DNA of 64,000 nucleotides from an uncultured virus (IMG/VR IMGVR_UViG_3300020123_000428) (taxonomy: Duplodnaviria; Heunggongvirae; Uroviricota; Caudoviricetes). The DNA lies in the IMG/VR virus record IMGVR_UViG_3300020123_000428; one strand, written 5' to 3'. Under the pieces are notes generated by a model that was given only the letters and a program-made list of their open reading frames with translations, made no database searches and had not been told where the DNA came from. This document shows positions 3,401-27,315 of the stretch, piece after piece (the first letter of the stretch is position 1; every line of letters starts with the position of its first letter). A program made the translations under genes and the position numbers.

Positions 3401-4030
3401 GTGAAGGCATGCTTGCTCGGCCCCCGACATAACCAGCGCCTCCCGCCCCTCCAGCCGATGTCCGGGCTGGGGTATGGCGGATCGCGCCTGTTCTGGTTGC
3501 CGGACCAGCCGCCGACTAGCCGGGTGGCCTACTCGGGTGCGCCGCAGACCATCGAGGTGATGCGCGACGCCGCGCTCGAGGATGCGGACCACTTCGAGAC
3601 GCGGCAGATCGCCGAGTCGGTGTGCGAGTGGCTCGACTCCAAGGACTACACCTCGGAGTATTTCGCGCTGTATCACTTCCTCCTGCAGCGCACGCGCTAC
3701 ATGCGGGATCCCAGGCGCACCGAGCTGGTCCGCGCGCCGTACGTGGTGAGCCGGCAGATCTTGGCCGGGCACCGGCCGTCGCTCGACTGCGACGACATGG
3801 CGTGCTGGCTGGCGGCGGCGGTGACCTCGGTCGGCGGCCGGGCCGAGTTCTGCACGGTGGCGTTCGAGCGGATGTTCTACGAGGGCAAGCCGCAGTACAG
3901 CCACGTGTTCACGCGCGCGCTGGAGCCGCGCACGCGCTGCATGCTGGTGCTGGATCCCGTCGCGGCGGAGAAGACCCCGCAGATGTTACGGCGGATCAAG
4001 GCCGCTGCTACCTGGCCGGTCACGGCCTGA
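3401..4030 (+). CDS. transglutaminase-like cysteine protease (putative virion maturation protease)
   Basis: LDCDDMACWL (Cys), YSHVF (His), VLDP (Asp) triad pattern; start may be ATG 3458. Confidence 0.7.
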   Translation: MKACLLGPRHNQRLPPLQPMSGLGYGGSRLFWLPDQPPTSRVAYSGAPQTIEVMRDAALEDADHFETRQIAESVCEWLDSKDYTSEYFALYHFLLQRTRYMRDPRRTELVRAPYVVSRQILAGHRPSLDCDDMACWLAAAVTSVGGRAEFCTVAFERMFYEGKPQYSHVFTRALEPRTRCMLVLDPVAAEKTPQMLRRIKAAATWPVTA

Positions 4031-4040
4031 GGAGACCTGG

Positions 4041-5879
4041 ATGGCATACAACCTACCACCCGCCTGGGATGCCGGATTCGTCCTCCCCAAGAACGTGCGC
4101 GACGAGGGCCTCGAGCGCCGCGCGTTCGTGACGAAGATGATCCCGCGCGGGACCTATGATCAGCCCACGGTCGGGACCGGCGGCTACGCCGTGCCCCGGT
4201 ACGTGATGGACGAGGGGTACGGGCAGGGCACGTACACCACCAAGTGGCAGCCCTCCGGGACCTACAACGGCCCCAAGATCCCCCACTGGCTGAACCAGCG
4301 CCCGCAGCTGGTCTCGACCGCGCCGATCCCCGGCGGTGGCCGCCAGGTCACCATCCAGCCGATGGGCGACGTGCCGATGCCCGAGCCGTTCGAGAGCTAC
4401 GGGCAGAAGGCGGCGGCCGACCTCATCTCGCGGGTGTCGGTCTTGCCGGCCGGCCAGCGCCAGCAGGTGCTGAAGGGCATCCTGGATCAGTTCGACAAGA
4501 GCGCGTGGAGCCGGACGAACGACATCTTCCAGCGCTACGTCAAGCAGGGCACGCCGCCGGCGAACGCCTTCCCGCTCGCGCTCGCCCGCGCGCTCTCGAC
4601 CGGCATCGCGGCCGAGATCATCGCGACGGGCATCCGAGGTACGGCACCCCAGGCAAACTCGCTCCTGGGCCTGGGGTGCTACGGCTGCATGGCAGCACTG
4701 GGAGCGACGGACGTGAGCCAGGTGACGGGCGGTCCCATCCTCTCGGCGGGGACGACTGGCGCCACGGCACGTCCACCCGCACCGGTGGCGACCCCCGCCA
4801 CCCCCGGTGCGCTCTGCGCGCCGCCGGCGGGGTACACGTGGGCGGCGGCCACGCCGACCGTGGCGGGGCACTGGGAGCGACTGGTCAAGGGCGCGACCCC
4901 GGTGTGGGGACCCTGCAATCCGACCACGGGGCAGACGATCGTGCCGGTCGTGCGGGACCAGCGGCCGACGTACGACTTCTACGTCGGGCCGTTCGGGTTC
5001 AACCTGGCCTCGCTGCCCGATCGCGTTTGGGCGCCGGGGCAGACGGGATCGGGCATCGCCAACCGCGCGGCGCCTCCGGACATCATGTACCTGACGCCGG
5101 ACCCGAACGCGACCCTGCCAAACCCCCCGGCCGGGAGTCCCTTGCGCGCGATCGCCGCCGACGTGATCGCGTATCTGAAGATGCGGCTCACCCAGTCCAA
5201 GGATGCCAATGGCAAGACCGACACCCCGGTCTACTACACGGGCGCCAGCGCCATCTACGGCTACCCGGAGTCGGACGCGGCCACGTGGTTCGGGGCGATG
5301 GACATCACGCCGCAGACCCCGCTCCGCATGCACGATCTGGCGAACCTGCGCACGGCGATCGCGCCGTTCGCCCGCACCAAGAACCCCAAGACCGGCGCGG
5401 ACATGATCCTCAGCGTCTCGCTCGCCAAGGCGGACGCCACCAAGGACTGGGACGCAAACTCAAACCCCCTGGCGCTCAAGGTCTGGCTCACCCGGGTGCC
5501 CGATCCGTCGGTCTGGGGCGAGCTCTGGAACCCGATGGTGTTCCTGAACCCGCTCACCGGCCTCCAGGTGACGGCCTCGATCGTGGCCGGCGCCGCCGGG
5601 TACCTGTCGGATCTGGCGTGCGGGGTCATGACCGATCCGAACGGCAAGACCGCGACGCAGGTCGCGGCCGGCACGGTCGCGGCGATGTACGGCGTGCCGC
5701 CGCAGACGGGCGTCGCGGGCGCCAACATCGCGGCCAGCGCGTGCGGGCAACCCCCGCCGCCGCCGACCGTGATCGCGCACCCGAAGTCGATCGTCCCCAT
5801 GCTACTGCTGGGGGCCGGCGCGATCGCGGCGGTCCTGATCGTGGCCCGCAAGCCCAAGAAGGCGACCCCCTCCCCATGA
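4041..5879 (+). CDS. large membrane-anchored virion protein
   Basis: 612 aa; C-terminal hydrophobic helix followed by RKPKK. Confidence 0.65.
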   Translation: MAYNLPPAWDAGFVLPKNVRDEGLERRAFVTKMIPRGTYDQPTVGTGGYAVPRYVMDEGYGQGTYTTKWQPSGTYNGPKIPHWLNQRPQLVSTAPIPGGGRQVTIQPMGDVPMPEPFESYGQKAAADLISRVSVLPAGQRQQVLKGILDQFDKSAWSRTNDIFQRYVKQGTPPANAFPLALARALSTGIAAEIIATGIRGTAPQANSLLGLGCYGCMAALGATDVSQVTGGPILSAGTTGATARPPAPVATPATPGALCAPPAGYTWAAATPTVAGHWERLVKGATPVWGPCNPTTGQTIVPVVRDQRPTYDFYVGPFGFNLASLPDRVWAPGQTGSGIANRAAPPDIMYLTPDPNATLPNPPAGSPLRAIAADVIAYLKMRLTQSKDANGKTDTPVYYTGASAIYGYPESDAATWFGAMDITPQTPLRMHDLANLRTAIAPFARTKNPKTGADMILSVSLAKADATKDWDANSNPLALKVWLTRVPDPSVWGELWNPMVFLNPLTGLQVTASIVAGAAGYLSDLACGVMTDPNGKTATQVAAGTVAAMYGVPPQTGVAGANIAASACGQPPPPPTVIAHPKSIVPMLLLGAGAIAAVLIVARKPKKATPSP

Positions 5880-6349
5880 GCCTCTACCAGAAGAACACCC
5901 GGGATCTGATCACCGCGCTGGGCATCGGGCAGTGGAACGCCACGATGATCATCCCCTACATGATGATCGCGCCGGCCACGACCGACCCCAAGTCGGCGCA
6001 GATCATCCTCCTGGTCCAGCACCTCCAGCAACTGCTCTACCAGATGGGCGCGACCGACGTGGCCAACACGGGGCGGCTGGATCCGCCGACCGCGCGCGCG
6101 CTGCGCCAGATCGTGGGCCCCAACTGGGAGCGCACGTCCTGGGGCGGCAACATCGGCGCGGTGCTGGACGCGCAGGCGGCCGGGACCCGGCTCACCCCGG
6201 CGCCCAGTGACGACGCGCCCAGCCCGATGCCGGTGGCGGTCGGCGGCCCGCTGGACTTCCTGCCGGACGTGCCCGGCGGCCTCGTGACCTACGGCGTGGT
6301 GGGGTACCTGCTCTACCGCCACTTCACGCGCGGGAGGATCGCCCGATGA
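5876..6349 (+). CDS. membrane protein with peptidoglycan-binding-like domain
   Basis: LQQLLYQMG...TGRLDPPTARALRQ resembles PG_binding_1; C-terminal TM helix. Confidence 0.55.
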   Translation: MSLYQKNTRDLITALGIGQWNATMIIPYMMIAPATTDPKSAQIILLVQHLQQLLYQMGATDVANTGRLDPPTARALRQIVGPNWERTSWGGNIGAVLDAQAAGTRLTPAPSDDAPSPMPVAVGGPLDFLPDVPGGLVTYGVVGYLLYRHFTRGRIAR

Positions 6350-7008
6350 CGTACACCAAGCCCGCGGCCCTGATGCGATCGTCACCGCCGGTCATGCAGT
6401 CCATGGGGGACGGCGACATCTGGGACTACCTCACGACGCTCATGGAGAGCGATGCGGTCGACGCGACCGACGCGCCCGCGACGGACAACGTCAACCAGAC
6501 CGTCGGCGGCGGCTCGACCACCGCCGCCGACTTCACCTCCATCAACGGCGTCTGCAAGCCCAAGAACTTCCCGGCGCTGGCCGCGGCGCGTGGATTTCAG
6601 GGCCAGCTCAACCGCGTGGCGCAGGTGAAGGGCTACGCGAAGATCGCGACCGATGGTGCGATCGGCCCCGGCACGCTGGCGCTGTTCCGGCTGGTGCAGT
6701 CGGCGGCGGGCGGATCGGTGATGGGAGATGCGTCGAGCTGCATGGGCGTGGCGCCCGATGTCGACGTGCTGGCCGGGCAGATCCAGGCGTTCGCGGACAC
6801 GCTGGGCGCGCCGGCCACGGTGCCGGGCCCGGCGATCTCGCTGCCGACCATCGTGACCGCGTCCGGCAAGACCGTCGTGGCCCCGGACGCCGGGATCCTG
6901 GGCTCGCTGGCGACGCTCTCGAGCGTGGAGAAGATCGCGCTCCTGGGCGTGGCCGGGGGGATCGGCTACCTGCTGCTGACCAGCGGCAAGAAGAAGCGGA
7001 GGAAGTGA
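6346..7008 (+). CDS. membrane protein with peptidoglycan-binding-like domain
   Basis: FQGQLN...IATDGAIGPGTLALF motif; C-terminal TM + GKKKRRK. Confidence 0.6.
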   Translation: MTYTKPAALMRSSPPVMQSMGDGDIWDYLTTLMESDAVDATDAPATDNVNQTVGGGSTTAADFTSINGVCKPKNFPALAAARGFQGQLNRVAQVKGYAKIATDGAIGPGTLALFRLVQSAAGGSVMGDASSCMGVAPDVDVLAGQIQAFADTLGAPATVPGPAISLPTIVTASGKTVVAPDAGILGSLATLSSVEKIALLGVAGGIGYLLLTSGKKKRRK

Positions 7009-7277
7009 TGTACACCCGCAACTCGCTGGGCGACGCGACGACGCCTGCCTCGACCCAGGTCACGGCGCCAGCGCCCAACTCGTTCAGCCTGCGCGACGCT
7101 GTCAACTCCGAGCCGGTGAGCACGGGGGCGGCGATCCTGCTCACGTACCACGGCTACAAGCGCACCGGGTCCCTGGCGTGGGCGCTCGTGTACGGCCTGG
7201 CGGGGAAGTGGTTCCCCGTCGAGGCGGTGCCGATCGCGATCGCCCAGGGCCTGGGGCAAAGGAAGCCCTGCCCATGA
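7005..7277 (+). CDS. small membrane virion protein
   Basis: hydrophobic segments; overlapping start/stop with neighbours. Confidence 0.55.
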   Translation: MMYTRNSLGDATTPASTQVTAPAPNSFSLRDAVNSEPVSTGAAILLTYHGYKRTGSLAWALVYGLAGKWFPVEAVPIAIAQGLGQRKPCP

Positions 7278-7600
7278 AGTTCGCATACAGCCGTGGTGGT
7301 GGCCCCCTGCTCGACTGGAGCAGCGGTCCGCCGCGTCAGACGCGCGCCGCCGACGCGACCGCGCTCGGATCGCTGGGGACGTCGAGTCTGTCCGGTCCGA
7401 CGCTGGTGTTGCCGGCGCCGGGCGCGCCGGAGCCGATCGGCGTCTCGAACCAAGCGATGGGCGGGTGCTCGTGCAGCGGATCGTGCGGGTGCGGCACCGG
7501 ATCGCCGCTGGGCGACATCGCGAGCTCGGTCCCGGGCGGCTATGTGACGATCCTGGCGGTGGCCGGGCTCGTCGCCTGGAAGCTCCTGCGGAAGCGGTGA
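7274..7600 (+). CDS. small membrane virion protein
   Basis: MKFAYSRGG...; CSCSGSCGC; C-terminal TM + RKR. Confidence 0.55.
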   Translation: MKFAYSRGGGPLLDWSSGPPRQTRAADATALGSLGTSSLSGPTLVLPAPGAPEPIGVSNQAMGGCSCSGSCGCGTGSPLGDIASSVPGGYVTILAVAGLVAWKLLRKR

Positions 7601-7605: not shown

Positions 7606-7737
7606 ATGGCTCGATTCGACATCTCCGACTTCGTGGCGGATGGCGGATATCCGCCGCGGTACTGGTACGTCACGATGGGCGCGGCATTGCTGGTGGGCGT
7701 TGCGCTGGATCGCTGGTTCCCGCTGAGGCGGAAGTAG
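7606..7737 (+). CDS. tiny membrane protein
   Basis: MARFDISDF...; TM + RRK. Confidence 0.45.
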   Translation: MARFDISDFVADGGYPPRYWYVTMGAALLVGVALDRWFPLRRK

Positions 7738-7739: not shown

Positions 7740-8153
7740 ATGGGGGCCTGGGGGATGACGCCGTTCGACTCCGAGGACTTCGGGGATACCTTCGCGGAGA
7801 TCGCGGAGGGCCCCGTCGGGAAGGCGATCTACGCGCAGGCCATGCACCACATCCAGGAGGCCGCGCGGGATGGCGAGCCCCAGAAGATGTGGTCGGCGGT
7901 CGGCATCGCGCTGTGGGCCTTTCACACGGGGGCCATTGTCGGCGAGGACCGAGTGCGGCTCTCGTCCGCCGCGTGGGAGTTGCTGCAGCGTCTGGAGAAG
8001 AACGAGTCGTGGATGCGATCGTGGGCGGTCCCGGCGGCGTTCCGTCGCGTCTTCAAGGAGGTGCGCGCGCAGGTGGTGGGGATGGATGGCGAGGACACCC
8101 CGCTGACGCCGTACACCCTCCACGAGTTGTTCGGATCAGGGAGGCGTCGCTGA
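7740..8153 (+). CDS. DUF4259-like protein
   Basis: N-terminal MGAWGMTPFDSED resembles the MGAWGxGPFDND signature. Confidence 0.5.
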   Translation: MGAWGMTPFDSEDFGDTFAEIAEGPVGKAIYAQAMHHIQEAARDGEPQKMWSAVGIALWAFHTGAIVGEDRVRLSSAAWELLQRLEKNESWMRSWAVPAAFRRVFKEVRAQVVGMDGEDTPLTPYTLHELFGSGRRR

Positions 8154-8156: not shown

Positions 8157-8450
8157 ATGGCCCGCTACTCGGTCTACGACTACACGCGGCACGCCTACGA
8201 CTACTACGAGGCGCCGGGGCCCGGCGGCACGCATGCCGGATCGCCGCCGCGTCCGGCATCGATCGGGGATCTGGGGGCATCGCCGGATCGGGGCGCATGG
8301 AAACTCCCGGCCGGCGCGCGCAAGGTGGGGAGCGGGGAGATGCCGCAGGGGCGCATCGCCAGCCTGTCTGGCGCGGACCTCCTCTCGAGCCCGTCATCGC
8401 TCGTGGTCTACGCCGTGATCGCCCTCGCCGCCTGGAGGTTCCTCCGATGA
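8157..8450 (+). CDS. small membrane virion protein
   Basis: C-terminal TM helix. Confidence 0.55.
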   Translation: MARYSVYDYTRHAYDYYEAPGPGGTHAGSPPRPASIGDLGASPDRGAWKLPAGARKVGSGEMPQGRIASLSGADLLSSPSSLVVYAVIALAAWRFLR

Positions 8451-9181
8451 CCTACCTGAAGCCGACCGCTGCCGTCCGCCGATACGCGCGCCCTCGTCGG
8501 CGCGGGCTCTCCGGGTTCTTCGACACCGTGACCGGCGACCTGACATCGATCTTGGGCCAGCCCTCGCCGGAGTCACAGTGCCTGACGCAGGCCAACGCGG
8601 CGTCGGCGCCGTTCGACGCCAAGATCGACGACCTCGCCAAGAACTGGAACCCGACCGGGTTCTACTCGACCGCGGACCTGCGCAGCATCGTCTCGTCGGC
8701 GATGTCCACCGTCCAGCAGGGCCAGGCGCTCCTCAACCAGGCCGCGGCCGAGCCGAACGCGTCCCAGGACAGCGTCATGCGGGCGACCGACGATCTGGGC
8801 CGAGCCGGGAGCCGCTCGCTCGACTACCTGCAGGCCGCCACGCAGGCGGATCAGCAGGGCATCGCGCTGGTCAACGCGCCGGGCCTCAAGCGCTGGGTGA
8901 CTGACACCATGGCGGCGGCGTCCTCGGCGATGGTCACCGCGGCCACCATCGGGTGCATCACGCCGTGGTGGGTGAACGCGCTGGCGACGTTCCAGTCGGC
9001 GTTCGACACCGCGTGGAGCGTGGTCAAGCAGGTGGTGGGCGCCGTGCTGGCGATCGGCGAGACCGCGCTCAAGGTCGCCGACGATCTCCCCCAGCTCACC
9101 GACCTCCTCGAGCTGGGCCTGGTGGTGATGGCTGGCTACTGGGTGTGGAACGAGTTCTTCGTCCACGGAGGTCGTCGATGA
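8447..9181 (+). CDS. membrane-anchored virion protein
   Basis: basic N-terminus RRRGLSG; C-terminal TM. Confidence 0.6.
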   Translation: MTYLKPTAAVRRYARPRRRGLSGFFDTVTGDLTSILGQPSPESQCLTQANAASAPFDAKIDDLAKNWNPTGFYSTADLRSIVSSAMSTVQQGQALLNQAAAEPNASQDSVMRATDDLGRAGSRSLDYLQAATQADQQGIALVNAPGLKRWVTDTMAAASSAMVTAATIGCITPWWVNALATFQSAFDTAWSVVKQVVGAVLAIGETALKVADDLPQLTDLLELGLVVMAGYWVWNEFFVHGGRR

Positions 9182-9690
9182 AGCGCGAGATCCCCCCCGA
9201 GGCTGAGGCGGCGGTCAGCAAGTACGTCGAGTTCCACCGGCTCGATCCGCGACAGATCGGCGCCTTCCCCGCCGAGTTCCGGATCCCCCCCCGGATGTAC
9301 CGGGCCGGCGCCGCCAAGTGGATCACCTACCAGTCCGGCAAGGTGGATCCGGAGACCCTGCGCAAGCCCTCCAAGCCGGTCAACTACATCCACGATCACG
9401 ACGCCGGGGTGATGTGCTACCTCGCCGAGCCGTACCATCCCGGGGACGCGGCCGTGCCAGTGCCGCGCGAGATCCTCGAGACCGAGGCGCTCACCCGTCT
9501 GGGCTACTGCCTGGGGTTCGAGTTCGAGGACGAGACGGGCAAGGCCGAGGCGCATAGCCAGCGCCCGCTGCCGGATCTGTACACGACACCCAACGGCCGC
9601 TGCCTCCTGGTCATCCAGTCCCGGAGGCACGTGCTGGCCATGATGTGGGGCGGGGGCCTGGGCGTGTTCGCCCGCGGTATCGACGGATAA
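9178..9690 (+). CDS. hypothetical protein
   Basis: GGAGG RBS; ATGA coupling; GC3-rich. Confidence 0.6.
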   Translation: MKREIPPEAEAAVSKYVEFHRLDPRQIGAFPAEFRIPPRMYRAGAAKWITYQSGKVDPETLRKPSKPVNYIHDHDAGVMCYLAEPYHPGDAAVPVPREILETEALTRLGYCLGFEFEDETGKAEAHSQRPLPDLYTTPNGRCLLVIQSRRHVLAMMWGGGLGVFARGIDG

Positions 9691-9696: not shown

Positions 9697-10161
9697 ATGA
9701 TCCCAACCAGCATCGCCGATCCCGCGGCCAGCGCGCCGACCACCATCCTCCCCCTCCTCGTGGTGGCGATCATGGCCCTGGCCGGGGTCATCGCCTACCT
9801 GTTTCGCTACTACTCCAAGCGCGTATCCCTGCTGGAAAAGGAGCGGCTGGAGCGCGAGATCGCGCATGCCAAGGAGCGCGAGTCCCTCGCCAAGGAGCGT
9901 GAGGCGTGGGCCGTCGAGCGCACCAAGCTCGAGGGCTACCGCGTCGAGCTGCGCGCCGAGTATGAGGGCAAGCACCGCGATCTCCTGCGATCGGTGTACG
10001 ACGACCTGCGCGAGTACGAGAACAACGCCCGCCGCGAGTACGCCGAGAATATGGAGACTGTCGCCGGCAAGGCCGCGGAGGCCTCCGACAAGATCGGCGT
10101 GATCCTGGACAAGTTCTATGACCGCTTCGTCGGCGGACCACGGCGATCCCCGCACTCATGA
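9697..10161 (+). CDS. TM + coiled-coil protein (possibly lysis-related)
   Basis: N-terminal TM followed by charged coiled coil. Confidence 0.55.
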   Translation: MIPTSIADPAASAPTTILPLLVVAIMALAGVIAYLFRYYSKRVSLLEKERLEREIAHAKERESLAKEREAWAVERTKLEGYRVELRAEYEGKHRDLLRSVYDDLREYENNARREYAENMETVAGKAAEASDKIGVILDKFYDRFVGGPRRSPHS

Positions 10162-10169: not shown

Positions 10170-10451
10170 ATGAAGAAGACTCGATTCGCCGATGGCACTG
10201 GCAGCGGCACCCGCACACAGATCGAATCCGCGTGCGTCCGTGCGATCGATGCCTACGTGACCCTGGAGCGCCGCGCCGATCGCGTGCTCGAGGCGCTGGA
10301 CGACATCACCATCCCCGGCGTCGTGCGCCACGCGATCACGGAGGAGGACAGCCTCGTCATCGCGATCAAGGACGTCACCGGCTCGCCGGAGGGATCCAAC
10401 CCCGTGAAATCGACGCTGGCCAGTGGCAAGAAACCTGAAATAGGGGGTTGA
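10170..10451 (+). CDS. hypothetical protein
   Basis: GAGG RBS; fits the operon. Confidence 0.45.
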   Translation: MKKTRFADGTGSGTRTQIESACVRAIDAYVTLERRADRVLEALDDITIPGVVRHAITEEDSLVIAIKDVTGSPEGSNPVKSTLASGKKPEIGG

Positions 10452-11909: not shown

Positions 11910-11923
11910 ACGAGTTCCGAGAT
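11910..11923 (+). promoter_or_regulatory. 14-bp element ACGAGTTCCGAGAT, copy 1
   Basis: identical copy at 12594-12607; each lies ~75 bp before a putative capsid gene. Confidence 0.5.
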
Positions 11924-12593: not shown

Positions 12594-12607
12594 ACGAGTT
12601 CCGAGAT
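12594..12607 (+). promoter_or_regulatory. 14-bp element ACGAGTTCCGAGAT, copy 2
   Basis: identical to 11910-11923. Confidence 0.5.
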
Positions 12608-13830: not shown

Positions 13831-13832
13831 CC

Positions 13833-16898: not shown

Positions 16899-16909
16899 AG
16901 GGACCCACC

Positions 16910-19508: not shown

Positions 19509-20126
19509 ATGGGCTACACCCGCACGCTCCGCCCCGCGCTCGGCGCCACGCCGATCGCCGCCGACGCTCCTGAGCCCGGCAAGCCACAGCCCCCGATCTA
19601 CCCGCTGGTGGTCGGCGATCACGGCGGCTGGCTCGAGGTGCGCAGCACCACGGCGGACGGATCGTGCGGGGTGCACGGCTATCCGTGCCGCCATCCGGGG
19701 GTCGATGTCGCCGGCGCCGCAGGCACCACCGTCGTGGCGCCCGAGACCGGATCGATCGTGATGGTCGGTGACGGGTCGGCGGCGCCGTTCGTGGGCTACG
19801 GGCCGTGGTTCGCGATCATCGCGGGCGCGGACAGTGGCAAGTTCCACTTCCTGGGGCACCTGGATCCCACGGGCGCGGCCTTGGCGCCGGTGGGCGCGCA
19901 GGTCACCGCAGGGGATCCGATCGGGGTCACGAGCTCGGCGAATCATACCCACTGGGAGGTCCGTGATCAGATCGTGCCGAACTTCGCCGCCGGCGAGGAC
20001 AACTTCACCAACAACAGCGACCCGATCGGCTGGTTAACGACCGCCGCGATCGGGGCCGGGACGCTCTTGGTGGCGGGTGCTGCGGCGGCGATCTTCCTCT
20101 GGCTCTTACTTCGGAGGCGTCCATGA
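19509..20126 (+). CDS. M23-family peptidoglycan peptidase with C-terminal membrane anchor
   Basis: HPGVD (HxxxD), GHL, HTHWEV (HxH) motifs. Confidence 0.75.
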   Translation: MGYTRTLRPALGATPIAADAPEPGKPQPPIYPLVVGDHGGWLEVRSTTADGSCGVHGYPCRHPGVDVAGAAGTTVVAPETGSIVMVGDGSAAPFVGYGPWFAIIAGADSGKFHFLGHLDPTGAALAPVGAQVTAGDPIGVTSSANHTHWEVRDQIVPNFAAGEDNFTNNSDPIGWLTTAAIGAGTLLVAGAAAAIFLWLLLRRRP

Positions 20127-23100
20127 GCAACCTCTTCATCAACCTGCCCACGCCGATCGGCAACGGGGTCGGCGCGTCGGTCGACATGTCGGCGACCGGC
20201 GCGACCAAGACCATCGTCGTGGTCGGCACGGCGCTGGTCACCCTGAACATCGAGATCAACAACGACGCCGCGCAGGGCGGCAGTTGGACCTCGGCAGCCA
20301 CGATCCAGAACACCGGCACCGTCACCATCAACGTGGCCTGCCGGTGGATGCGCGTGCGGGCGTCCGGCTACAACACCAGCGTCGGCGGGACCAGCTCGGT
20401 CAACGTCGGCGCGACCGATGACGGGACCGTGTTCGCGTCGCTGCCGGTGTCGGTCGGCAACGGCGTGGGCGCCGCGGTCGATGTCAGCGCGAACCTGGGG
20501 CTGTTCAAGACCGTCCAGGTCGGCGGGACGTTCGGGGGGACGACCCTGATCGAGGTGTCCGAGGATGGCACGACCGAATGGGCGCAGCCGTTCTCGTTCC
20601 AGAACCCGGGCGCGCAGTCAGCGGTGATCGTGACCCGGTTCATGCGCGTGCGCCGGGTCGGCGTTCCGGTGCTGAACCCCGGCCTGCCGGTGGTCAACGT
20701 CGGGTTCGCGTCGACCGCGGAGGGCAGCACCAAGCCGTCGCTGGCGATCGCGGGCGGCACCCAGACCGCCAGCTCGGGTACCGTCCTCTTTTCCAACACC
20801 AACGGCGTGACCTTCGGGCTCTTGGGCTCGGTGATGACGGCCTCGGTGCAGACCGCGGGCGGCACGGCCACCGGCGTCGGGGTCAGCGCGGGCACCGAGC
20901 TGGCCACCACCGGCGTGGTGGTCCTCTCGAACGCCAACGGCGTCTCGTTCGGGATGCACAACGCCACGGTGACGGCCTCGTACACGCAGTCGACCGCGCC
21001 GGCGGCCATCGCCGCCGGATCGCAGACGGCAGGTTCCGGGACGGTGGTGCTCGCCAACTCGAACGGCGTGTCCTTCGGCATGTCGGGCTCCTCGCAGATC
21101 ACGGCCAGCTATAGCCAGTCGACATCGCCCGCCGCCATCGCGGCCGGATCGCAGACCGCCGGTTCCGGCACCGTGGTGCTGGCCAACAGCAACGGTGTCT
21201 TCTTCGGAATGTCCGGGTCGTCACAGATCACCGCGAGCTACACGCAATCGACAGCGCCGGCCGCGATCAGCGCCGGCACCGCCTCCGTCGGCGCGGGCAC
21301 CGTCGTCCTCTCGAACTCCAACGGGGTGTCCTTCGGGCTGTCGGGCTCGACCGTCACCGCCTCCGTGGAGGCGCAGTCGGTCGCGCCGGCCGCGATCGCG
21401 GCCGGATCGCAGACCGGTAGTTCCGGCACCATCCTGTTCTCGAACGCCAACGGCGTGGTGTTCGGCATGAACGCCTCATCCCAGGTCACGGCGAGCTACA
21501 CCCAGTCGACAGCGCCGGCCGCGATCAGCGCCGGGACCGCGTCCGTCGGCGCGGGCACGGTGGTGTTCTTGAACAGCAACGGTGTCTCGTTCGGCCTGTC
21601 CGGCTCCACGGTCACGGCGTCCGCGGCCGCGCAGTCGGTGGCGCCAGGCGCCATCGCGGCGGGCACACAGACCGCCAACTCCGGTACGGTCGTCTTCTCG
21701 AACTCGAACGGCGTCTCCTTCGGGATGGCCGGATCGTCGCAGATCACCGCCAGCTATACGCAGTCGACGGCGCCCGCCGCGATCAGCGCCGGGACTGCCT
21801 CGGTCGGCGCCGGCACGGTCGTGCTGTCGAACTCGAACGGGGTCTCGTTCGGGCTCTCGGGATCGACGGTGACAGCCTCGGTCGGCGCGCAGTCGACCGC
21901 GCCCGGCGGGATCGCCGCCGGATCGCAGACCGCGACATCCGGCACCGTGGTGTTCTCGAACAGCAACGGCGTGTCCTTCGGGCTGTCGGGGTCGACGGTC
22001 ACCGCCTCGATCGCGGCCGGCGTGTCCGCGCCCGCGGTGGCGGCCGGAACGCAGACCGCCACGGGTGGCACGGTGGTGTTCTCAAACTCGAACGGGGTCT
22101 CGTTCGGGATGGCCGGATCGTCGCAGGTCACGGCGTCGTATACGCAGTCCACGGCGCCCGCGGCCATCAGCGCCGGCACGGCCTCGGTTGGGGCCGGCAC
22201 CGTCGTGTTCTCGAACTCGAACGGGGTCTCGTTCGGCCTCTCTGGGTCGACGCTCACGGCGAGCTACACGCAGTCGACCGCGCCCGCCGCGATCAGTGCC
22301 GGGACCGCGTCCGTTGGTGCGGGGACGGTCGTATTCTCCAACTCGAACAGCGTCTCGTTCGGTCTATCCGGATCGACCGTCACCGCCAGCATCAACGCTG
22401 GCCAGCCCTCGGTCGGGTGGCTGTTCGGAGATGGCACCGATGGCGCGGCCACGATGGATGGCGCGGCGACGGTCGCCGGCTGCACTCTCGCCGCGAGCGT
22501 GTACACCGCGACGCGGCCGGTATTCTTCACCCAGATCACCGGCAGCGCCAACATCACCCTCAAGCCCGACGGGTATCCGATCTACTGCTCGGGTACCTGC
22601 GCGGGACCTGGCTCGGGCACCTTCACGATCGACAGCTCCGGCAACCCCGGACAGTCCGGCGCCGCTGGCGGCGCTGGTGGCACCGCGACCTGGACGACCC
22701 CCCGTTACCTGCCTGCGGGGGTGACCGGCGGCGCCGGTGGAGGTGCCGGCCAGAACGGCACCGCGGCCGGGGCATCGCCGCGGGAGTTCTCGGGCGCGGC
22801 GGCCTCGGGCGGCACCACCGCGGGCGGCGTGGCCGGCCCCGGTGGCAACGGCGGCACGGGGCGCGGCGGTGGTGGTGGCGGGTCTGGCGGCGTGACCGGC
22901 GGCGCCGGCAACCCGGGCGGCGCGGGCGGCGGCATCACGGCCAAGTCGCCAGTCAGTGGCGATCTGCACCAGGCCGAGCAGGCCACCACCTTCCGCGACA
23001 ACACCACGGTCGCCTGGAGCTCGGGATCCGGTGGCGGTGGCGGCGGCGGCGCCGGTGGTGGCGGTGGATCCGGCGGGGGCGGCGGGTCCGCGGGGTCGCC

Positions 23101-23395
23101 GATCGTCCTACACGTGTTCGCGTGGAGCAACATCGCCCACATCGCGATCCAGTCCCTGGGGGGCGGCGGGGGAGCGGGTCAGGCCAGCGCCATGGCGGGC
23201 GGTGGCGCGTGCGGCGGCGGCGGCTCCGGTGGCATCGTCGTGATCGAGACCGCCGCGGCTACGTCGGCGACCCCCACGCCGACCGTCACCGGGGGCGGCG
23301 CGGGCGCGGGCGGCGGGGGCGGCACCGGATTCTTCGCGGGAGCGGCCGGCGGGACCGGCGGAAACGGCCTGTTCATCCTCCTGAACCCGCCCTGA
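20123..23395 (+). CDS. spike/fibre protein with ~42-aa repeats and Gly-rich C-terminal domain
   Basis: 1090 aa; ~13 repeats centred on VVFSNSNGVSFG; FGDGTDG then Gly-rich region. Confidence 0.7.
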   Translation: MSNLFINLPTPIGNGVGASVDMSATGATKTIVVVGTALVTLNIEINNDAAQGGSWTSAATIQNTGTVTINVACRWMRVRASGYNTSVGGTSSVNVGATDDGTVFASLPVSVGNGVGAAVDVSANLGLFKTVQVGGTFGGTTLIEVSEDGTTEWAQPFSFQNPGAQSAVIVTRFMRVRRVGVPVLNPGLPVVNVGFASTAEGSTKPSLAIAGGTQTASSGTVLFSNTNGVTFGLLGSVMTASVQTAGGTATGVGVSAGTELATTGVVVLSNANGVSFGMHNATVTASYTQSTAPAAIAAGSQTAGSGTVVLANSNGVSFGMSGSSQITASYSQSTSPAAIAAGSQTAGSGTVVLANSNGVFFGMSGSSQITASYTQSTAPAAISAGTASVGAGTVVLSNSNGVSFGLSGSTVTASVEAQSVAPAAIAAGSQTGSSGTILFSNANGVVFGMNASSQVTASYTQSTAPAAISAGTASVGAGTVVFLNSNGVSFGLSGSTVTASAAAQSVAPGAIAAGTQTANSGTVVFSNSNGVSFGMAGSSQITASYTQSTAPAAISAGTASVGAGTVVLSNSNGVSFGLSGSTVTASVGAQSTAPGGIAAGSQTATSGTVVFSNSNGVSFGLSGSTVTASIAAGVSAPAVAAGTQTATGGTVVFSNSNGVSFGMAGSSQVTASYTQSTAPAAISAGTASVGAGTVVFSNSNGVSFGLSGSTLTASYTQSTAPAAISAGTASVGAGTVVFSNSNSVSFGLSGSTVTASINAGQPSVGWLFGDGTDGAATMDGAATVAGCTLAASVYTATRPVFFTQITGSANITLKPDGYPIYCSGTCAGPGSGTFTIDSSGNPGQSGAAGGAGGTATWTTPRYLPAGVTGGAGGGAGQNGTAAGASPREFSGAAASGGTTAGGVAGPGGNGGTGRGGGGGGSGGVTGGAGNPGGAGGGITAKSPVSGDLHQAEQATTFRDNTTVAWSSGSGGGGGGGAGGGGGSGGGGGSAGSPIVLHVFAWSNIAHIAIQSLGGGGGAGQASAMAGGGACGGGGSGGIVVIETAAATSATPTPTVTGGGAGAGGGGGTGFFAGAAGGTGGNGLFILLNPP
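20740..22395 (+). repeat. ~13 imperfect ~126-129 bp coding repeats
   Basis: repeated TASYTQSTAPAAISAGTASVGAGTVVFSNSNGVSFGLSGS. Confidence 0.85.
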
Positions 23396-23411
23396 TCCGG
23401 GGTCGCGATAG

Positions 23412-24239
23412 GTGAGCCGATCCCCCCGGGTTGGCGCGCCGGTCTTGCCACTGTCACACCGCCAGGAGCATAGTGACGGTCGCATGCTGCTCGACATGAC
23501 CGAGGTGGCGAGCCGCCTCACGCAGGGCCAGGCCGGATCCGGGCTGGGCTTCGACCGCGTGCTCCACATCCAGGGGTCGACGTACCGGGACTCGTCGACC
23601 ATCATCATCATGCCCAGCCGGACGCCGACCCTGCACTACCGGGTGGTGGCCGCGCTGCAGGGGCTCATCGCCCCCATGAACCAGCGCCGGTGCATGATGT
23701 TCTGCGTGGGGGACGAGGTCGGCGTGGCCTACGACAACCTGATCGGCCACATCCTGGCCGACAAGGATCTCTCGTCGTACCGCTACGTGATGACCATCGA
23801 GAGCGATAACCTGGTGCCGCCCGACGCGCAGCGCCGGCTGACCGAGACCATCGAGGCCGGGATGTTCGACGCGGTCTCCGGGATCTACTTCACCAAGGGC
23901 GACATCAACATGCCCATGGCGTACGGCGATCCGGCGCACTTCGAGGCCACCGGCGAGCTCGAGTTCCGTCCGCGCGACGTGGCGGCGTGCCTGGCGGCCG
24001 GTCAGGTGATGCCCGTCAACGGCATCGCGATGGGCTGCGCGCTCTGGCGGATGGACCTCTTCCGCAAGATGCCCCGTCCGTGGTTCGTGACGGTCGACGA
24101 CCTGGTCGACGGCAAGGCGATGGGGTTCACGCAGGATCTCTGGTTCTGCAAGGCGGCGCGGCTCGCCGGGCACCGCTTCGCGGTCGACTGCCGGGTGAAG
24201 GTCGGCCACATGGACCTCGTCACCGAGCAGGTCTACTGA
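23412..24239 (+). CDS. GT-A fold glycosyltransferase-like protein
   Basis: IESDNL (DxD-like), MGCALW, TQDLWFC, VKVGH motifs; start uncertain. Confidence 0.65.
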   Translation: MSRSPRVGAPVLPLSHRQEHSDGRMLLDMTEVASRLTQGQAGSGLGFDRVLHIQGSTYRDSSTIIIMPSRTPTLHYRVVAALQGLIAPMNQRRCMMFCVGDEVGVAYDNLIGHILADKDLSSYRYVMTIESDNLVPPDAQRRLTETIEAGMFDAVSGIYFTKGDINMPMAYGDPAHFEATGELEFRPRDVAACLAAGQVMPVNGIAMGCALWRMDLFRKMPRPWFVTVDDLVDGKAMGFTQDLWFCKAARLAGHRFAVDCRVKVGHMDLVTEQVY

Positions 24240-24241
24240 GC

Positions 24242-24433
24242 ATGCTCGTGCTCCTCCTGTGCGGCGCGGTCTGTGCCACGCTGCAGCACGGCTGTAGCTG
24301 GGCGCGGCGCCGGCTCGAGGACGAGGACGGCGTGTCGCGGCAGGATCTGGGGGTCCTCCTGTTCCTGGAGGGCGCGATGCAGATGGCGACGACCGCGCTG
24401 ATCGCCTTGGCGGTCGTGGAAGGAACGCGATGA
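24242..24433 (+). CDS. small membrane protein
   Basis: hydrophobic; fills gap, coupled to next gene. Confidence 0.35.
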   Translation: MLVLLLCGAVCATLQHGCSWARRRLEDEDGVSRQDLGVLLFLEGAMQMATTALIALAVVEGTR

Positions 24434-25677
24434 AGATCTTGATCACCGGCGGCTGTGGATTTCTGGGCTCGCACATCGTCGAGCACCTCCTGAAGACGAC
24501 CGACGCCGACACCCAGATCGTCATCCTGGACAAGCTCACCTACGCCTCGAACGGGTTCGACCGGTTGCGCGACATCAGCGCCAGCCTGCCCTACGGACTC
24601 CCCGAGCGCGTGCAGGTGCTGGGATGCGACCTGTCCCAGTCCCTGCCCGAGGGGGTCCTCCGCGAGCTGGGCCCGGTGGACTACATCATCCACGCCGCGG
24701 CGGAGAGCCACGTCGACAACAGCATCGTCGATCCGCTCCCCTTCCTGATGAGCAACGTCATCGGGACGCACCACCTGCTCATGGCCGCGCGCGCGATGAC
24801 CGGCCTGCGGCGGATCTTCCTGGTGTCGACGGACGAGGTCTACGGGCCGGCGCCCGCGAAGGGCTACGGCGACTTCGTGACCCGTGGCGTCCGCCACCTC
24901 GTTCAGGAGGCGTCGGACGCGCTCAACATGGCCGGTAACGCCTGGAACTCCCTGCCGAAGGACATCCAGACCGCCTTCAGCAAGTTCAAGGAGGTCAGCG
25001 GCGGGTTCTGGCTGCGCCGGACGCACCTCCTGTACAGCGGCTTCGACGAGGAGGCGCGGTTCCGGCCAGCCAACCCCTACGCGGCCTCGAAGGCCGGCGC
25101 CGAGGCGGTGGCCATGGCCTACGCCAACACGTACGGGCTGGCCATCACCATCGTCAACACCATGAACCTCATCGGCGAGCGCCAGCACGCCGAGAAGTTC
25201 GTGCCGCTGGTGATTCGCAAGGTGCTCGCCGACGAGACGGTCGTCATCCACGCCGACCCCAGCCAGACCCAGTCGGGGAGCCGGTTCTACCTGCACTGCC
25301 GGACGTTCGCGAACGCGCTGGCGTGGCTGATGGACCAGGACGCCGCCGCGCCCGCGCTGGCGCTACGCGCAGCGCTGCCTGCTATCCCGACGTCCGCGCT
25401 CCCTCTCAAGCTCCATGTCTGCGGCGAGCGCGAGATCACCAACCTGGACCTGGCGCGCCTCATCGCCGAGTACGTGGGCCGGCCGCTCCGCTACCAGCTC
25501 GTGGACTTCCATTCGAGCCGGCCGGGCCACGATCTGCGCTACGCGATGAACGACAGCCTGATCACCCGCATGGGGTGGAAGCGCCCCATGGGCCTCGAGC
25601 AGTCCCTGGAGAAGACCGTCCGTTGGTACCTCGCCCATCCCCGCTGGCTCGATGCGGGCAAGAAGGAGACACGCTGA
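24430..25677 (+). CDS. rfbB: dTDP-glucose 4,6-dehydratase-like SDR
   Basis: TGGCGFLG, DKLTYA, HAAAESHVD, STDEVYG, YAASK, RPGHDLRY. Confidence 0.85.
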   Translation: MKILITGGCGFLGSHIVEHLLKTTDADTQIVILDKLTYASNGFDRLRDISASLPYGLPERVQVLGCDLSQSLPEGVLRELGPVDYIIHAAAESHVDNSIVDPLPFLMSNVIGTHHLLMAARAMTGLRRIFLVSTDEVYGPAPAKGYGDFVTRGVRHLVQEASDALNMAGNAWNSLPKDIQTAFSKFKEVSGGFWLRRTHLLYSGFDEEARFRPANPYAASKAGAEAVAMAYANTYGLAITIVNTMNLIGERQHAEKFVPLVIRKVLADETVVIHADPSQTQSGSRFYLHCRTFANALAWLMDQDAAAPALALRAALPAIPTSALPLKLHVCGEREITNLDLARLIAEYVGRPLRYQLVDFHSSRPGHDLRYAMNDSLITRMGWKRPMGLEQSLEKTVRWYLAHPRWLDAGKKETR

Positions 25678-26297
25678 TGTCGGAGTTCCTGCACGTCCTC
25701 ATGGTCGGGTTCGCCATCATCGGCGCCGGGATGGTCCCCGTGGTGATCACCATCGCGGTGGCGCGGTACCGCGCGCGGCGCCGGGAGGATCGGCTCTCGT
25801 TCCTGGGCGTCCCGACCGGGTCACTGACCGGCTGGGACGCGACGCTCGAGTACGGGGACCACGAGGGCGGCATCTTCGATCGCGACACGCTAGATGCGTC
25901 GGTCGCACTGGAGCACAACCGGCGTGATCACGAGGAGTTCATGCGAGAGATCCAGATGGCGGAGGAGCGCCGCCACCGCGCGGAACAGCGCGCGCGCCGT
26001 GAGAAGCGGTGGGCGTGGCTCCCGTGGTCGAAGTACCGTCGCCGCAGGGCCGCCGAGTTGCGCTGGCAGGTCTCTCAGCTGGAAGATGAACTGAAGCTCG
26101 CGCGCTGGCGGGCCGCGCAGTACCGTCGACTTGCGATGGATCATGTCGACTGGATGGGCAGTGGTCTACTGGAGCAGATCAAGAATATCGACGATACCAT
26201 CGCGGTGGTGTTCGAGACTCCACGCGCGCACGCAACGGACCCGAGTCCCGCCGATGACGATATCCCGGCCAACGCGTACGAGGATCTCCTGCAATGA
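25677..26297 (+). CDS. membrane-anchored hypothetical protein
   Basis: N-terminal TM; AGGAG RBS; TGATG coupling. Confidence 0.5.
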   Translation: MSEFLHVLMVGFAIIGAGMVPVVITIAVARYRARRREDRLSFLGVPTGSLTGWDATLEYGDHEGGIFDRDTLDASVALEHNRRDHEEFMREIQMAEERRHRAEQRARREKRWAWLPWSKYRRRRAAELRWQVSQLEDELKLARWRAAQYRRLAMDHVDWMGSGLLEQIKNIDDTIAVVFETPRAHATDPSPADDDIPANAYEDLLQ

Positions 26298-27157
26298 GCG
26301 ACCTCGGGACGCGCCCGGCCGACCCGGGACACGTGAGCGACCTCGGGACGCGCCCGGCCGACCCGGGACACGTGCTGCGCGTCGAGCCGGACCCTGCCGC
26401 GCAGGGGCATACTCCACAGATCAGCCCGGAGATTCCGGGACCCGCCGATGATGCGTGTGGCGTGGCTGGTTCCGTTGAGGTCACGATCGCCAAGCCGCCG
26501 GCGACCCGCCGGCTCGACCTTGCCAGTGGCCAGAACGTCCGCGTGGGATTCGAAGGCGTCGACATCTGGCCGGGCGCGCAGCACGTCGTGAACCTCCAGC
26601 AGTACCCCTGGCCGTTCGAGGACGAGAGCGTGCTCGAGGTCAACTGCAGCCACTACATCGAGCACATCCCGATGGAGATGATCGTCGGTCGCCGCTGCAG
26701 GTGCTGCGGCGGCCACGGCATTGTGCGCTTCGAGGGGTCGGCGGAGCGATGCTCACACTGCCAAGATGGGGTGCAGGCATGGCCTGCCAAGGACGCCCTC
26801 TTCGCATTCTTCGACGAGTGCTACCGCATCCTGGTGCCCGACGGCTGGCTCCACGTAGTGGTGCCGGCGCACCGCTCGGACCGGGCGTTCCAGGACCCGA
26901 CGCACCGGAGGTTCATCACCGCGCAGACCTTCGCGTACATGAACCAGGAGTGGCGGCGGATCAACCGGCTCGACCACTACAACGTCGACTGCAACTTCGT
27001 GGGCAACGCCAACCCGGTGGTGGACCAGACACTGACCCTGCGGCACCCCGACGTCGCCCAGCAGATGATCCAGCGCAACTGGAACACCGTGATCGACTGG
27101 ACCGCCAGCATGCAGAAGAAGCCCCGCATGACGGTCAAGGTGTTCACGTCGCCATGA
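26294..27157 (+). CDS. class I SAM-dependent methyltransferase-like protein with Zn-finger insertion
   Basis: LDLASG, WPFEDESV, SHYIEH, ECYRILVPDG, DPTH; true start may be downstream of 26441. Confidence 0.7.
   Translation: MSDLGTRPADPGHVSDLGTRPADPGHVLRVEPDPAAQGHTPQISPEIPGPADDACGVAGSVEVTIAKPPATRRLDLASGQNVRVGFEGVDIWPGAQHVVNLQQYPWPFEDESVLEVNCSHYIEHIPMEMIVGRRCRCCGGHGIVRFEGSAERCSHCQDGVQAWPAKDALFAFFDECYRILVPDGWLHVVVPAHRSDRAFQDPTHRRFITAQTFAYMNQEWRRINRLDHYNVDCNFVGNANPVVDQTLTLRHPDVAQQMIQRNWNTVIDWTASMQKKPRMTVKVFTSP
26295..26441 (+). repeat. 39-bp tandem duplication and three GCCCGG-N5-CCGGGAC hairpins
   Basis: 26295-26333 equals 26334-26372; hairpins at 26313-26330, 26352-26369, 26424-26441. Confidence 0.7.
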
Positions 27158-27315
27158 ACGTCTCGCACCACAAGCCCGCCGCGCGCGGCGTCAACCAGCT
27201 CATGTACGTGGGCGACGATGCGGCGATCGAGAGCGCGACGGCGAGCGGGTGGTCCACCCCGGTGAAGGTGGCGCTGGCGGCGGCGCTGGCGTACCTGCTC
27301 CTGGGGCGTCGGTGA
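27154..27315 (+). CDS. small membrane virion-type protein
   Basis: MYVGDD; C-terminal TM + RR. Confidence 0.45.
   Translation: MNVSHHKPAARGVNQLMYVGDDAAIESATASGWSTPVKVALAAALAYLLLGRR

Follow-up and report, generated by a model that had tools for sequence, protein, structure and literature searches.

PRD1/PM2-type phages are tailless, with an inner membrane rich in small viral proteins and with virion muralytic enzymes; their double-jelly-roll (DJR) capsid protein is encoded by a single gene, and PRD1 has a packaging ATPase. The Halopanivirales encode a packaging ATPase of the FtsK/HerA type. In adenovirus, the Arg-rich proteins pVII/Mu, like protamines, condense double-stranded DNA (dsDNA) in a jelly-roll capsid, and a dedicated cysteine protease processes the virion proteins. 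For bacterial viruses with large genomes, the HK97 capsid, portal and terminase machinery is taken to be required, and to our knowledge prokaryotic viruses with jelly-roll capsids have been described only with genomes below about 31 kb. The archaeal virus SPV1 has a single-jelly-roll shell (VP4 hexamers and VP10 pentamers), a layer of lipid inside and a VP1 nucleoprotein core, and its circular 20.2-kb genome carries glycosyltransferase and methyltransferase genes and no identifiable polymerases (PMC8459092). PMC8812541 describes SPV1 as having no packaging ATPase, gives it a basal position in the capsid branch of the helvetiaviruses, states in part the FtsK/HerA-type ATPase of the Halopanivirales and gives the genomes of prokaryotic DJR viruses as smaller than 20 kbp. 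Here we analyzed a 64-kb stretch of DNA (the window) from an 81,604-bp contig of an uncultured virus, IMG/VR record IMGVR_UViG_3300020123_000428; the window covers 64 of 81.6 kb, with 17.6 kb beyond view. The operon at 551-23395 is, in our judgment, probably the virion operon of an uncultured, temperate, tailless virus of soil bacteria with a jelly-roll shell and a condensed-DNA core, packaged without a motor. Genes were called with a custom script based on third-position guanine-cytosine content (GC3; 88 calls), and dense regions were refined by frame plot and translations.

Two adjacent, beta-rich proteins of about 200 amino acids (aa) had been singled out in an earlier, sequence-only reading of the window, which named a fold check for both beforehand. 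They proved to be open reading frames (ORFs) of 191 aa (12001-12576) and 207 aa (12680-13303), and AlphaFold2, which was applied to these two proteins, modeled each as a single jelly roll. The 191-aa model was an all-beta jelly roll (pLDDT 85.3, pTM 0.79; alignment of 45 sequences), and the 207-aa model consisted of an N-terminal helix (residues 5-36) and a jelly roll (~50-207; pLDDT 83.3, pTM 0.69; 44 sequences). The two are separate genes, 103 nucleotides (nt) apart, with no detectable sequence relationship between their products (hhalign probability 0.3%). The 191-aa protein is encoded by the most conserved gene of the genome, with 77-91% identity in 5/5 relatives by tblastn, followed by a transglutaminase-like enzyme (3401-4030; 73-78%) and the 207-aa protein (63-73%); the remaining genes common to all five relatives were 31-64% identical. 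At E <= 0.001, 641 homologues of the 191-aa protein were found among 719 candidates, and 679 of the 207-aa protein. A HMMER pass with the former over 1.84 billion representatives yielded 286 clusters at 50% identity (67 at E <= 1e-10), in agreement with the large undescribed lineage suggested earlier; no description of the group was found in the literature searched, and papers outside that search could exist. The longer homologues P0308 and P0293 carry insertions of ~235-260 aa in two different jelly-roll loops (after residue ~73 and ~117) and are not fused double jelly rolls; the insertions look like capsid "tower" decorations or outward-facing capsid loops. A weak Pfam match of the 191-aa protein to DUF7592 (E 0.079; 1.1e-5 on one homologue, under the cut-off) was uninformative and was set aside.

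Both models were compared with 48,161 chains by VIA-align, and the SPV1 capsid chain 6oj0_T was the best match of each: Z 8.4, root mean square deviation (rmsd) 3.9 and 136 aligned residues for the 191-aa model, the only Z >= 8, and Z 7.1, rmsd 3.5 and 124 aligned residues for the 207-aa model, which had no match at Z >= 8. The 191-aa model next matched the STIV turret jelly roll (7.3), satellite panicum mosaic virus (7.2), HHIV-2 (6.7), P23-77 VP17 (6.5), HCIV-1 (6.4) and P23-77 VP16 (5.5), and the 207-aa model matched HHIV-2 (6.6) and HCIV-1 (6.2). Across both models, the capsid proteins of HHIV-2, HCIV-1 and P23-77 scored Z 4.9-6.7, within the range of generic jelly-roll similarity, and a BFVD search returned generic jelly-roll capsids only, with SPV1 VP4 at rank 25. 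On these models the jelly-roll fold of both proteins is well supported; a specific tie to any capsid family is not.

An exact 14-base word was observed at 11910-11923 and 12594-12607, 91 and 86 nt upstream of the two jelly-roll start codons; with up to 2 mismatches allowed, it has no other copy in the window. In addition, a hairpin and a block (...CACCGAATCAAACG...) lie in the 12001-12576 leader, both kept in the relatives G001 and G003. The word or leader could serve as a late promoter or in translation. Promoter-like sites were not found within 9-15 kb; the sole terminator-like site there falls within 12001-12576 and is no more than chance would give, and the RNA folds of two intergenic regions were not beyond those of shuffled sequences (z -1.2, -1.6).

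The likeness to SPV1 lies in the jelly-roll shell, an internal lipid layer, a basic DNA-condensing protein, a circular genome, glycosyltransferase and methyltransferase genes, and the lack of identifiable polymerases and of a packaging ATPase, which for the window virus are predicted from sequence. By analogy of particle scheme, SPV1 is the closest analogue, and it is on that comparison the only described virus to combine a jelly-roll shell, a lipid layer, a condensed-DNA core and no packaging ATPase. Profile searches found no sequence similarity of the window capsid proteins to those of SPV1, and the two viruses differ in other respects: the SPV1 genome is 20.2 kb and its host a hyperthermophilic archaeon, whereas the genome of the window virus is ~82 kb and its links are to bacteria. 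The polybasic protein of the window is far larger (479 aa) and is fused to hydrophobic and acidic parts, and of the two viruses only that of the window encodes an integrase, enzymes acting on peptidoglycan, and a transglutaminase-like enzyme alongside a shared putative leader tag. The Portogloboviridae combination of no packaging ATPase with a basic nucleocapsid protein is found here in gene content, with DNA binding predicted. Membership in that family fails on genome size and host, as its ~20-kbp circular dsDNA and Sulfolobales hosts stand against 81,604 bp, soil metagenomes, bacterial peptidoglycan enzymes and one relative located next to bacterial genes.

No terminase, portal, HK97 capsid or tail genes had been noticed in the window, and library scans of 89 window ORFs (73 against Pfam and PHROGs, a further 16 against Pfam only) likewise matched no terminase, portal, HK97 capsid or tail-tube/sheath family. 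The rest of the complete relative G001 (86.4 kb) held no structural or packaging family. Six-frame searches of five complete or near-complete relatives gave 0/5 for Terminase_6N (PF03237), TerL_ATPase (PF03354), Phage_portal (PF04860) and Phage_capsid (PF05065), and 0/5 for FtsK_SpoIIIE (PF01580), Pox_A32 (PF04665) and DUF87/HerA (PF01935); named control genomes were positive for every family, from 1/14 (Pox_A32) to 14/14 (DUF87). Walker A patterns ([AG]xxxxGK[STG] or GxGK[ST]) were scanned in stop-to-stop frames of at least 80 aa. Matches numbered 3 in the window, 3 in G001, 2 in G002, 6 in G003, 4 in G004 and 9 in G005. Those of the window were one in a wrong frame, a deoxyribosyltransferase and a 139-aa helical protein; a glycine-rich P-loop context was seen in only two ORFs, both of G003 (one AAA+-like, one helicase-like of 1177 aa), with no counterpart in the window. 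No gene conserved across the window and the five relatives has a Walker A. The packaging ATPase had been expected in the flanks; since neither a hallmark ATPase nor a conserved Walker A was found in the relatives, it looks absent and not merely outside the window.

These searches bear on a first alternative, a very divergent tailed phage whose two jelly rolls would serve for cement or decoration, its HK97 capsid, portal, terminase and tail genes lying hidden among orphan ORFs. Tailed-phage jelly-roll cement proteins are among the fold matches, ordinary phage genes occur elsewhere in the window (DUF5131, Dam, HNH, GP88, NADAR), a pectate-lyase "tailspike-like" domain lies at 62988-63998, and automatic taxon labels read Uroviricota. 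Yet the HK97 capsid, portal and terminase large subunit of the Caudoviricetes were found neither in the window ORFs, nor in G001, nor in six-frame searches of the five genomes (0/5), there is no conserved P-loop gene, and the most conserved protein is a jelly roll. Moreover, 17-18 tail-anchored proteins are interleaved with the jelly-roll gene, and we know of no tailed-phage head modules with many interleaved proteins of this kind. We consider a tailed phage distinctly unlikely.

The window had also been assigned to a Halopanivirales-type virus. In this alternative, two vertical single-jelly-roll proteins would form heteromeric pseudo-hexamers over a membrane, and a divergent or host-supplied FtsK/HerA ATPase would package the DNA. 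In the Halopanivirales/Helvetiavirae (SH1, HHIV-2, HCIV-1, SNJ1, P23-77), two neighboring genes encode single-jelly-roll capsid proteins, the internal membrane holds many small membrane proteins, the vertices bear spikes and some members are temperate. In the window, two sequence-unrelated genes with jelly-roll models also stand side by side, many membrane proteins are encoded and a membrane is predicted, and HHIV-2, HCIV-1 and P23-77 are among the fold matches. Membership fails on the ATPase: FtsK_SpoIIIE, Pox_A32 and DUF87 were each 0/5 in the relatives, no such (A32-like) ATPase was found in the 64 kb of the window, and no Walker A is conserved. No sequence relationship of the window proteins to those of the Halopanivirales was detected, the top fold match is SPV1 and not a helvetiavirus, and a polybasic core protein is present. 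The 81.6-kb genome also compares with 16-31 kb in that order, the described families being given as ~30 kbp and 16-19 kb in the abstracts of PMC12643093 and PMC12642351. A Halopanivirales-type virus is unlikely on this evidence; what stands of the assignment is the pair of adjacent single jelly rolls, with SPV1 the closer match. The fused double jelly roll of the Tectiviridae/Corticoviridae (Bamfordvirae) is replaced here by two separate ORFs.

For a condensed-DNA core, the relevant gene is 10448-11887. Residues 1-265 of its product contain 43% Arg+Lys with a net charge of +111, and the remainder is about neutral, residues 266-400 being hydrophobic or amphipathic and the C-terminus acidic. From this composition, residues 1-265 are proposed as the DNA-condensing part. 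Every distant relative examined encodes a large Arg/Lys-rich protein immediately upstream of the jelly-roll gene. Adenovirus differs from this arrangement in that there is no homology, it has the packaging ATPase IVa2, and it has no membrane. Asn-Pro pairs were observed at residues 232 and 266 (RMNPG, RRNPGG), bracketing the end of the polybasic region, and the N-termini of the homologues in loci L022, L023 and L028 also contain ...NP...LVNPG....

Membrane anchors were judged by Kyte-Doolittle hydropathy, which gave 17-18 anchored small proteins, close to the ~20 claimed earlier. A C-terminal hydrophobic segment with a basic (Arg/Lys) tail was found in 14 proteins, and such C-termini are concentrated in the virion module. 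In the 612-aa protein at 4041-5879, hydropathy peaked at 2.6 at residues 584-602, and among the small proteins the genes starting at 6346, 7005 and 8157 are present in 5/5 relatives (tblastn). These predicted anchors point to an internal lipid layer, probably populated by the anchored proteins. The earlier description of a tailless, probably membrane-containing virion module with two single jelly rolls is supported by these results. A particle of another kind, enveloped or pleomorphic, would combine a polybasic nucleocapsid with an outer envelope bearing the tail-anchored proteins, the jelly rolls being matrix or lectin-like surface proteins. Many anchored proteins, a protamine-like protein and no packaging motor would suit such a particle, and lectins and adhesins with jelly rolls are among the fold matches. 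However, a protein as extremely conserved as that of 12001-12576, with icosahedral capsid proteins as its top matches, is more likely to form a lattice than to be a variable surface protein, and neither jelly-roll protein has a signal peptide or membrane anchor. We regard an enveloped particle as distinctly improbable and retain the jelly-roll shell over a lipid layer.

Ten module proteins start with M-x-Y (4041, 6346, 7005, 14588, 15234, 15881, 16207, 16455, 16910 and 19509), including 6/9 of the second membrane-protein cluster. They are otherwise unrelated, usually with a basic residue next and [LMV]G[DA] 8-30 residues on, and all are encoded downstream of the transglutaminase-like enzyme; outside the module, Tyr occupies position 3 in 2/58 called genes (background Tyr frequency 2.1%). 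RiPP leaders (of ribosomally synthesized and post-translationally modified peptides) had been proposed for the window; no RiPP machinery was seen, and those "leaders" are most likely these N-termini of membrane proteins. The shared M-x-Y...[LMV]G[DA] pattern may be a sorting or cleavage tag. In the enzyme, D129-C130-D131, H168 and D185 are invariant in 10 homologues, 3/10 family members matched PF01841 Transglut_core (best E 2.9e-14), and the gene is retained in distant relatives as well as in 5/5 close ones.

In the assembly that we propose, the two jelly-roll proteins would form an icosahedral shell, the first as capsomers and the second as co-capsomer or penton base; for this pair the models speak at the level of the fold. 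The 17-18 tail-anchored proteins would insert in the host membrane and give rise to the lipid layer beneath the shell, the M-x-Y...[LMV]G[DA] N-termini of ten of them perhaps being a tag that the transglutaminase-like enzyme uses for sorting or cleavage. Because the genomes have no conserved P-loop ATPase, DNA would not be pumped into a preformed shell; the polybasic half of 10448-11887 would condense it, and membrane and shell would close around the condensed core in an SPV1-like manner. At entry, the anchored M23 peptidase would cut peptidoglycan and the 1090-aa repeat protein would bind the receptor.

The membrane-anchored M23 peptidase noted earlier was recovered with its hydrophobic segment at residues 183-201 of 205 and is proposed as a virion-borne entry enzyme. 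Distant relatives have M23 or SLT enzymes in the same module, at least one with a C-terminal anchor. A spike had also been named: the 1090-aa repeat ORF exists, and its role as a vertex spike or receptor-binding fiber is proposed. The repeat has a 129-nt period in 10.7 copies (TRF), the gene is present in 3/5 relatives, the N-terminal ~200 aa share 45-52% identity with proteins of L008, L020 and L021, and no Pfam/PHROG family matched.

Nine related loci were found in IMG/VR, the relatives being 75.6-86.4 kb long. Of the five records examined, four are flagged with direct terminal repeats, and CheckV completeness is 94-100%. The measured end repeats are 32, 123, 123 and 125 bp, and record starts are permuted within one gene order, as expected from circular assemblies; the genome is probably circular, of ~82 kb. 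The genes of 551-23395 are co-directional (+), and several refined starts overlap preceding stop codons, so the genes look translationally coupled. By tblastn, 17/30 called genes below 23.4 kb occur in all five relatives, versus 9/58 beyond. The range drawn before, 3401-27315, is changed at both ends, as the conserved module starts upstream at ~551 and the last 4 kb (23412-27157) are accessory and missing from 2/5 relatives. In the 22 kb of G001 outside the span of the window, orphan ORFs are accompanied by an integrase and by an endolysin, a GH25 lysozyme that has peptidoglycan-binding domains; the terminase, portal and HK97 capsid for which the flanks were to be watched were not found in the relatives examined. 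The tyrosine integrase of the window supports the temperate lifestyle claimed before, as judged from its sequence family. A cell-envelope or secretion operon on an integrative element would account for a module in which most genes have no known family and many encode membrane proteins or peptidoglycan enzymes. It is highly improbable in view of the IMG/VR relatives of ~79-86 kb with terminal repeats and permuted starts, which carry an integrase, an endolysin (G001), phage-type replication/modification genes and a capsid-like jelly roll.

Beyond these relatives, many homologues of the capsid gene lie on 75-105-kb contigs. Distant loci with 36-39% capsid identity were found on 22-, 94- and 105-kb contigs and preserve one gene order: a transglutaminase-like enzyme comes first, then tail-anchored proteins, the ...GI[DV]G protein, a polybasic protein of 538-735 aa, the jelly roll and a second protein of 215-241 aa, which aligns weakly to the 12680-13303 profile (hhalign E 4e-4, probability 34%). 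A muralytic enzyme ends the conserved order, as seen on the 94- and 105-kb contigs and in relatives detected at the level of hidden Markov models (83 and 93 kb). An 8-kb contig of 45% GC carries three of the module genes. In a profile search of 401 genomes of one phylum, that of a metagenome-assembled genome (MAG) labeled Myxococcales, six had a match, the centre genome included. Two of these matches lie on contigs of 83.2 and 92.7 kb with Transglut_core, polybasic, jelly-roll and M23/SLT proteins (one anchored), and the 40 kb examined of each showed no terminase or portal. A third match is on a 29-kb MAG contig (G133:C73), where a compact module (L041 + L042) adjoins bacterial housekeeping genes: it is preceded by a cNMP-binding protein, an HtrA-like protease and a pseudouridine-synthase/methyltransferase, and comprises a Transglut_core enzyme, a histone-H1-like polybasic protein of 164 aa, two proteins of ~150-180 aa occupying the capsid position, as well as an SLT enzyme and a peptidoglycan-binding protein with an anchor. 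Its gene content suggests a possible small relative integrated in a bacterial chromosome, with a weak capsid match (E 3.7e-6) on a contig that could be chimeric. The myxobacterial host guessed earlier receives some support from the 6/401 genomes and from this distant relative beside bacterial genes. The MAG labels "Candidatus Peribacteria" and "Nitrobacter" on other relatives were taken as binning labels and set aside as host evidence. Sequencing runs containing the window DNA were five soil metagenomes (shares 0.40 to 0.05), with no RNA run among those listed. Neither 50,697 GenBank phage records nor 72,556 plasmids matched 12001-12576 by tblastn.

Several points weigh against a motor-less jelly-roll virion. 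All evidence on the window is computational, and particle, lipid and proteins alike are predictions; the gene calls come from our own GC3 script and the membrane anchors from hydropathy. The structural scores are middling: by the tool's own warning, a best Z of 7-8 is typical even for models without true relatives, and on these models kinship with SPV1 or the Helvetiavirae beyond the common jelly-roll fold is not established. Foldseek gave no match at E <= 0.001 in PDB or BFVD, and the profiles of both jelly-roll families match no solved capsid protein by sequence. The matches further include jelly-roll cement/decoration proteins from tailed phages (KHP40, Z 6.3; Pam1, Z 6.0; GP4, Z 5.0), and Pam1 is the top Foldseek row for the 12680-13303 model (probability 0.99). 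Even without a Walker A, a motor could be atypical or come from the host. One of the large conserved proteins 1614-3365, 4041-5879 and 17730-19505 could conceal the divergent fold of a capsid, portal or ATPase; in the ESM Atlas, 1614-3365 matched unnamed viral clusters only, with the automatic label Uroviricota.

The features of the window are collected in Table 1.

Table 1. Genes and gene clusters of the 64-kb window, with the basis of each assignment
Feature	Coordinates	Strand	Basis and remarks
Head-of-operon trio	551-1168, 1129-1617, 1614-3365	+	First with Cys-rich C-terminus, second acidic and helical; 5/5 relatives, 37-52% identity
Transglutaminase-core Cys-His-Asp enzyme, candidate maturation protease or cross-linker	3401-4030	+	PF01841; invariant residues
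Candidate large virion membrane/vertex protein	4041-5879	+	612 aa; M-A-Y start; C-terminal anchor; 5/5 relatives
Small tail-anchored cluster	6346-7008, 7005-7277, 7274-7600, 7606-7737, 8157-8450	+	Hydropathy; overlapping starts
Non-conserved insert	7740-8153	+	Inside first small membrane-protein cluster
Soluble protein ending ...GIDG, minor capsid or vertex candidate	9178-9690	+	~170 aa; 5/5 relatives
Protein with N-terminal anchor and coiled coil	9697-10161	+	Hydropathy 2.85 at residues 17-33; 5/5 relatives
Small soluble protein	10170-10451	+	
Polybasic "protamine-like" protein	10448-11887	+	479 aa; composition; 5/5 relatives
Proposed major capsid protein, single jelly roll	12001-12576	+	191 aa; GC3 0.95; AlphaFold2
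Proposed second capsid protein or penton base	12680-13303	+	207 aa; GC3 0.93; AlphaFold2
Second cluster, nine tightly packed small membrane proteins	13303-17173	+	GC3 frame plot, translations, hydropathy, refined starts
Members of second cluster	13303-13830, 13833-14438, 14588-14929, 14926-15234, 15234-15884, 15881-16207, 16207-16452, 16455-16898, 16910-17173	+	
C-terminally anchored proteins	Starts 4041, 6346, 7274, 7606, 8157, 13303, 13833, 14588, 15234, 15881, 16207, 16455, 16910, 19509		Hydropathy
N-terminally anchored proteins	Starts 9697, 14926, 25677; doubtful, 7005		Hydropathy
Cys-rich protein	17177-17722	+	181 aa; 5/5 relatives
Protein with response-regulator receiver domain	17730-19505	+	591 aa; PF00072 E 2.2e-7, residues 235-325; 5/5 relatives
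M23 peptidoglycan peptidase	19509-20126	+	M-G-Y start; C-terminal anchor; PF01551 E 8.8e-9; PHROG metallo-endopeptidase E 1.4e-8
Repeat protein	20123-23395	+	1090 aa; 2 N-terminal ~95-aa domains, ~11 repeats of 43 aa, Gly-rich C-terminus
Accessory sugar-modification genes, not core virion	23412-27157	+	Present in G001, G002, G005; absent from G003, G004
Glycosyltransferase-like	23412-24239	+	PHROG 1574
NAD-dependent epimerase/dehydratase	24430-25677	+	PF01370 E 2.1e-37
N-terminally anchored protein	25677-26297	+	
Methyltransferase-like	26294-27157	+	
Right-half families: DUF5131, Dam, HNH/DUF968, GP88, NADAR, DUF7448, DUF1643, nucleoside deoxyribosyltransferase			Pfam/PHROG scans
Tyrosine integrase	61978-62925	+	PF00589 E 1.3e-11; G001 homologue E 1.9e-13
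Pectate-lyase-type domain	62988-63998, cut by window end		Sole "tail"-labeled match (Pfam/PHROG)

At the head of the operon, the genes of 551-3365 gave no Pfam, PHROG or PDB-sequence match. The third encodes a 583-aa protein with a disordered N-terminus followed by a long coiled coil, which could be scaffold-like; the related-locus search found no viral contig with it or with the distant homologue P0281, and the 45-sequence alignment of the 12001-12576 family offered no stretch of sufficient conservation for such a search. Homologues of 9178-9690 occur at the same position in the distant loci L022, L023 and L040, proteins with similar C-terminal endings take that position in L028, L036, L038 and L041, and the ESM Atlas gave no match for 9178-9690. 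The 591-aa protein at 17730-19505 was observed to have two C-terminal repeats of ~110 aa, and its receiver domain is odd for a structural module. The accessory sugar-modification genes also matched PHROG 540 (E 1.4e-70) and PHROG 6636 (E 2.9e-5), and the cassette may serve glycosylation of virion proteins or change the host surface.

The window has a GC content of 65-73%. Its left half consists of orphan ORFs nearly throughout, on the + strand, and its right half (~28-64 kb) holds ordinary phage replication/modification genes; no tRNA was detected. Searches against PDB sequences (single-sequence/profile) were uninformative for 38903-41002, 1614-3365, 60771-62039, the 3401-4030 family and both jelly rolls. 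A 641-aa TnpB/Cas12f-like protein is encoded at 41002-42927 (Cas12f1-like_TNB E 1.7e-5, PHROG transposase E 1.5e-7); with 40-48% identity in 4/5 relatives, the gene looks resident and not a passing insertion. Two tandem paralogues of 147 and 127 aa (44572-45015 and 45091-45474, - strand) have near-identical C-termini (...LEIY[IV]RYH...) and are present in 5/5 relatives. The window and G001-G005 share no conserved P-loop NTPase gene, with helicase, packaging ATPase and terminase all missing, and no polymerase family matched in the window or G001. Replication must lean on the host or on unrecognized proteins (e.g., 60771-62039, 58930-60510).

Taken more broadly, the loci may represent a widespread, undescribed, high-rank lineage of 80-105-kb bacterial viruses (at least 45-74% GC) with a jelly-roll shell around a membrane, motor-less packaging, protamine-like condensation and leader-tag/protease sorting, an interpretation that we offer tentatively, at somewhat less than even confidence. 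That lineage would be the bacterial counterpart of the SPV1 architecture, with by far the largest known prokaryotic jelly-roll virus genome. E. coli would allow direct tests of the leader tag with its candidate protease, of the polybasic core protein and of the anchored M23 enzyme. If the interpretation is true, virus-detection tools that call such contigs tailed phages misclassify a whole lineage, and abundant tailless viruses of soil bacteria with 80-105 kb would break the size rule for jelly-roll genomes. In view of the basal place of SPV1 in the helvetiavirus capsid branch (PMC8812541), such viruses would bear on the origin of jelly-roll capsids, and motor-less, condensation-driven packaging would not be confined to a rare archaeal virus.

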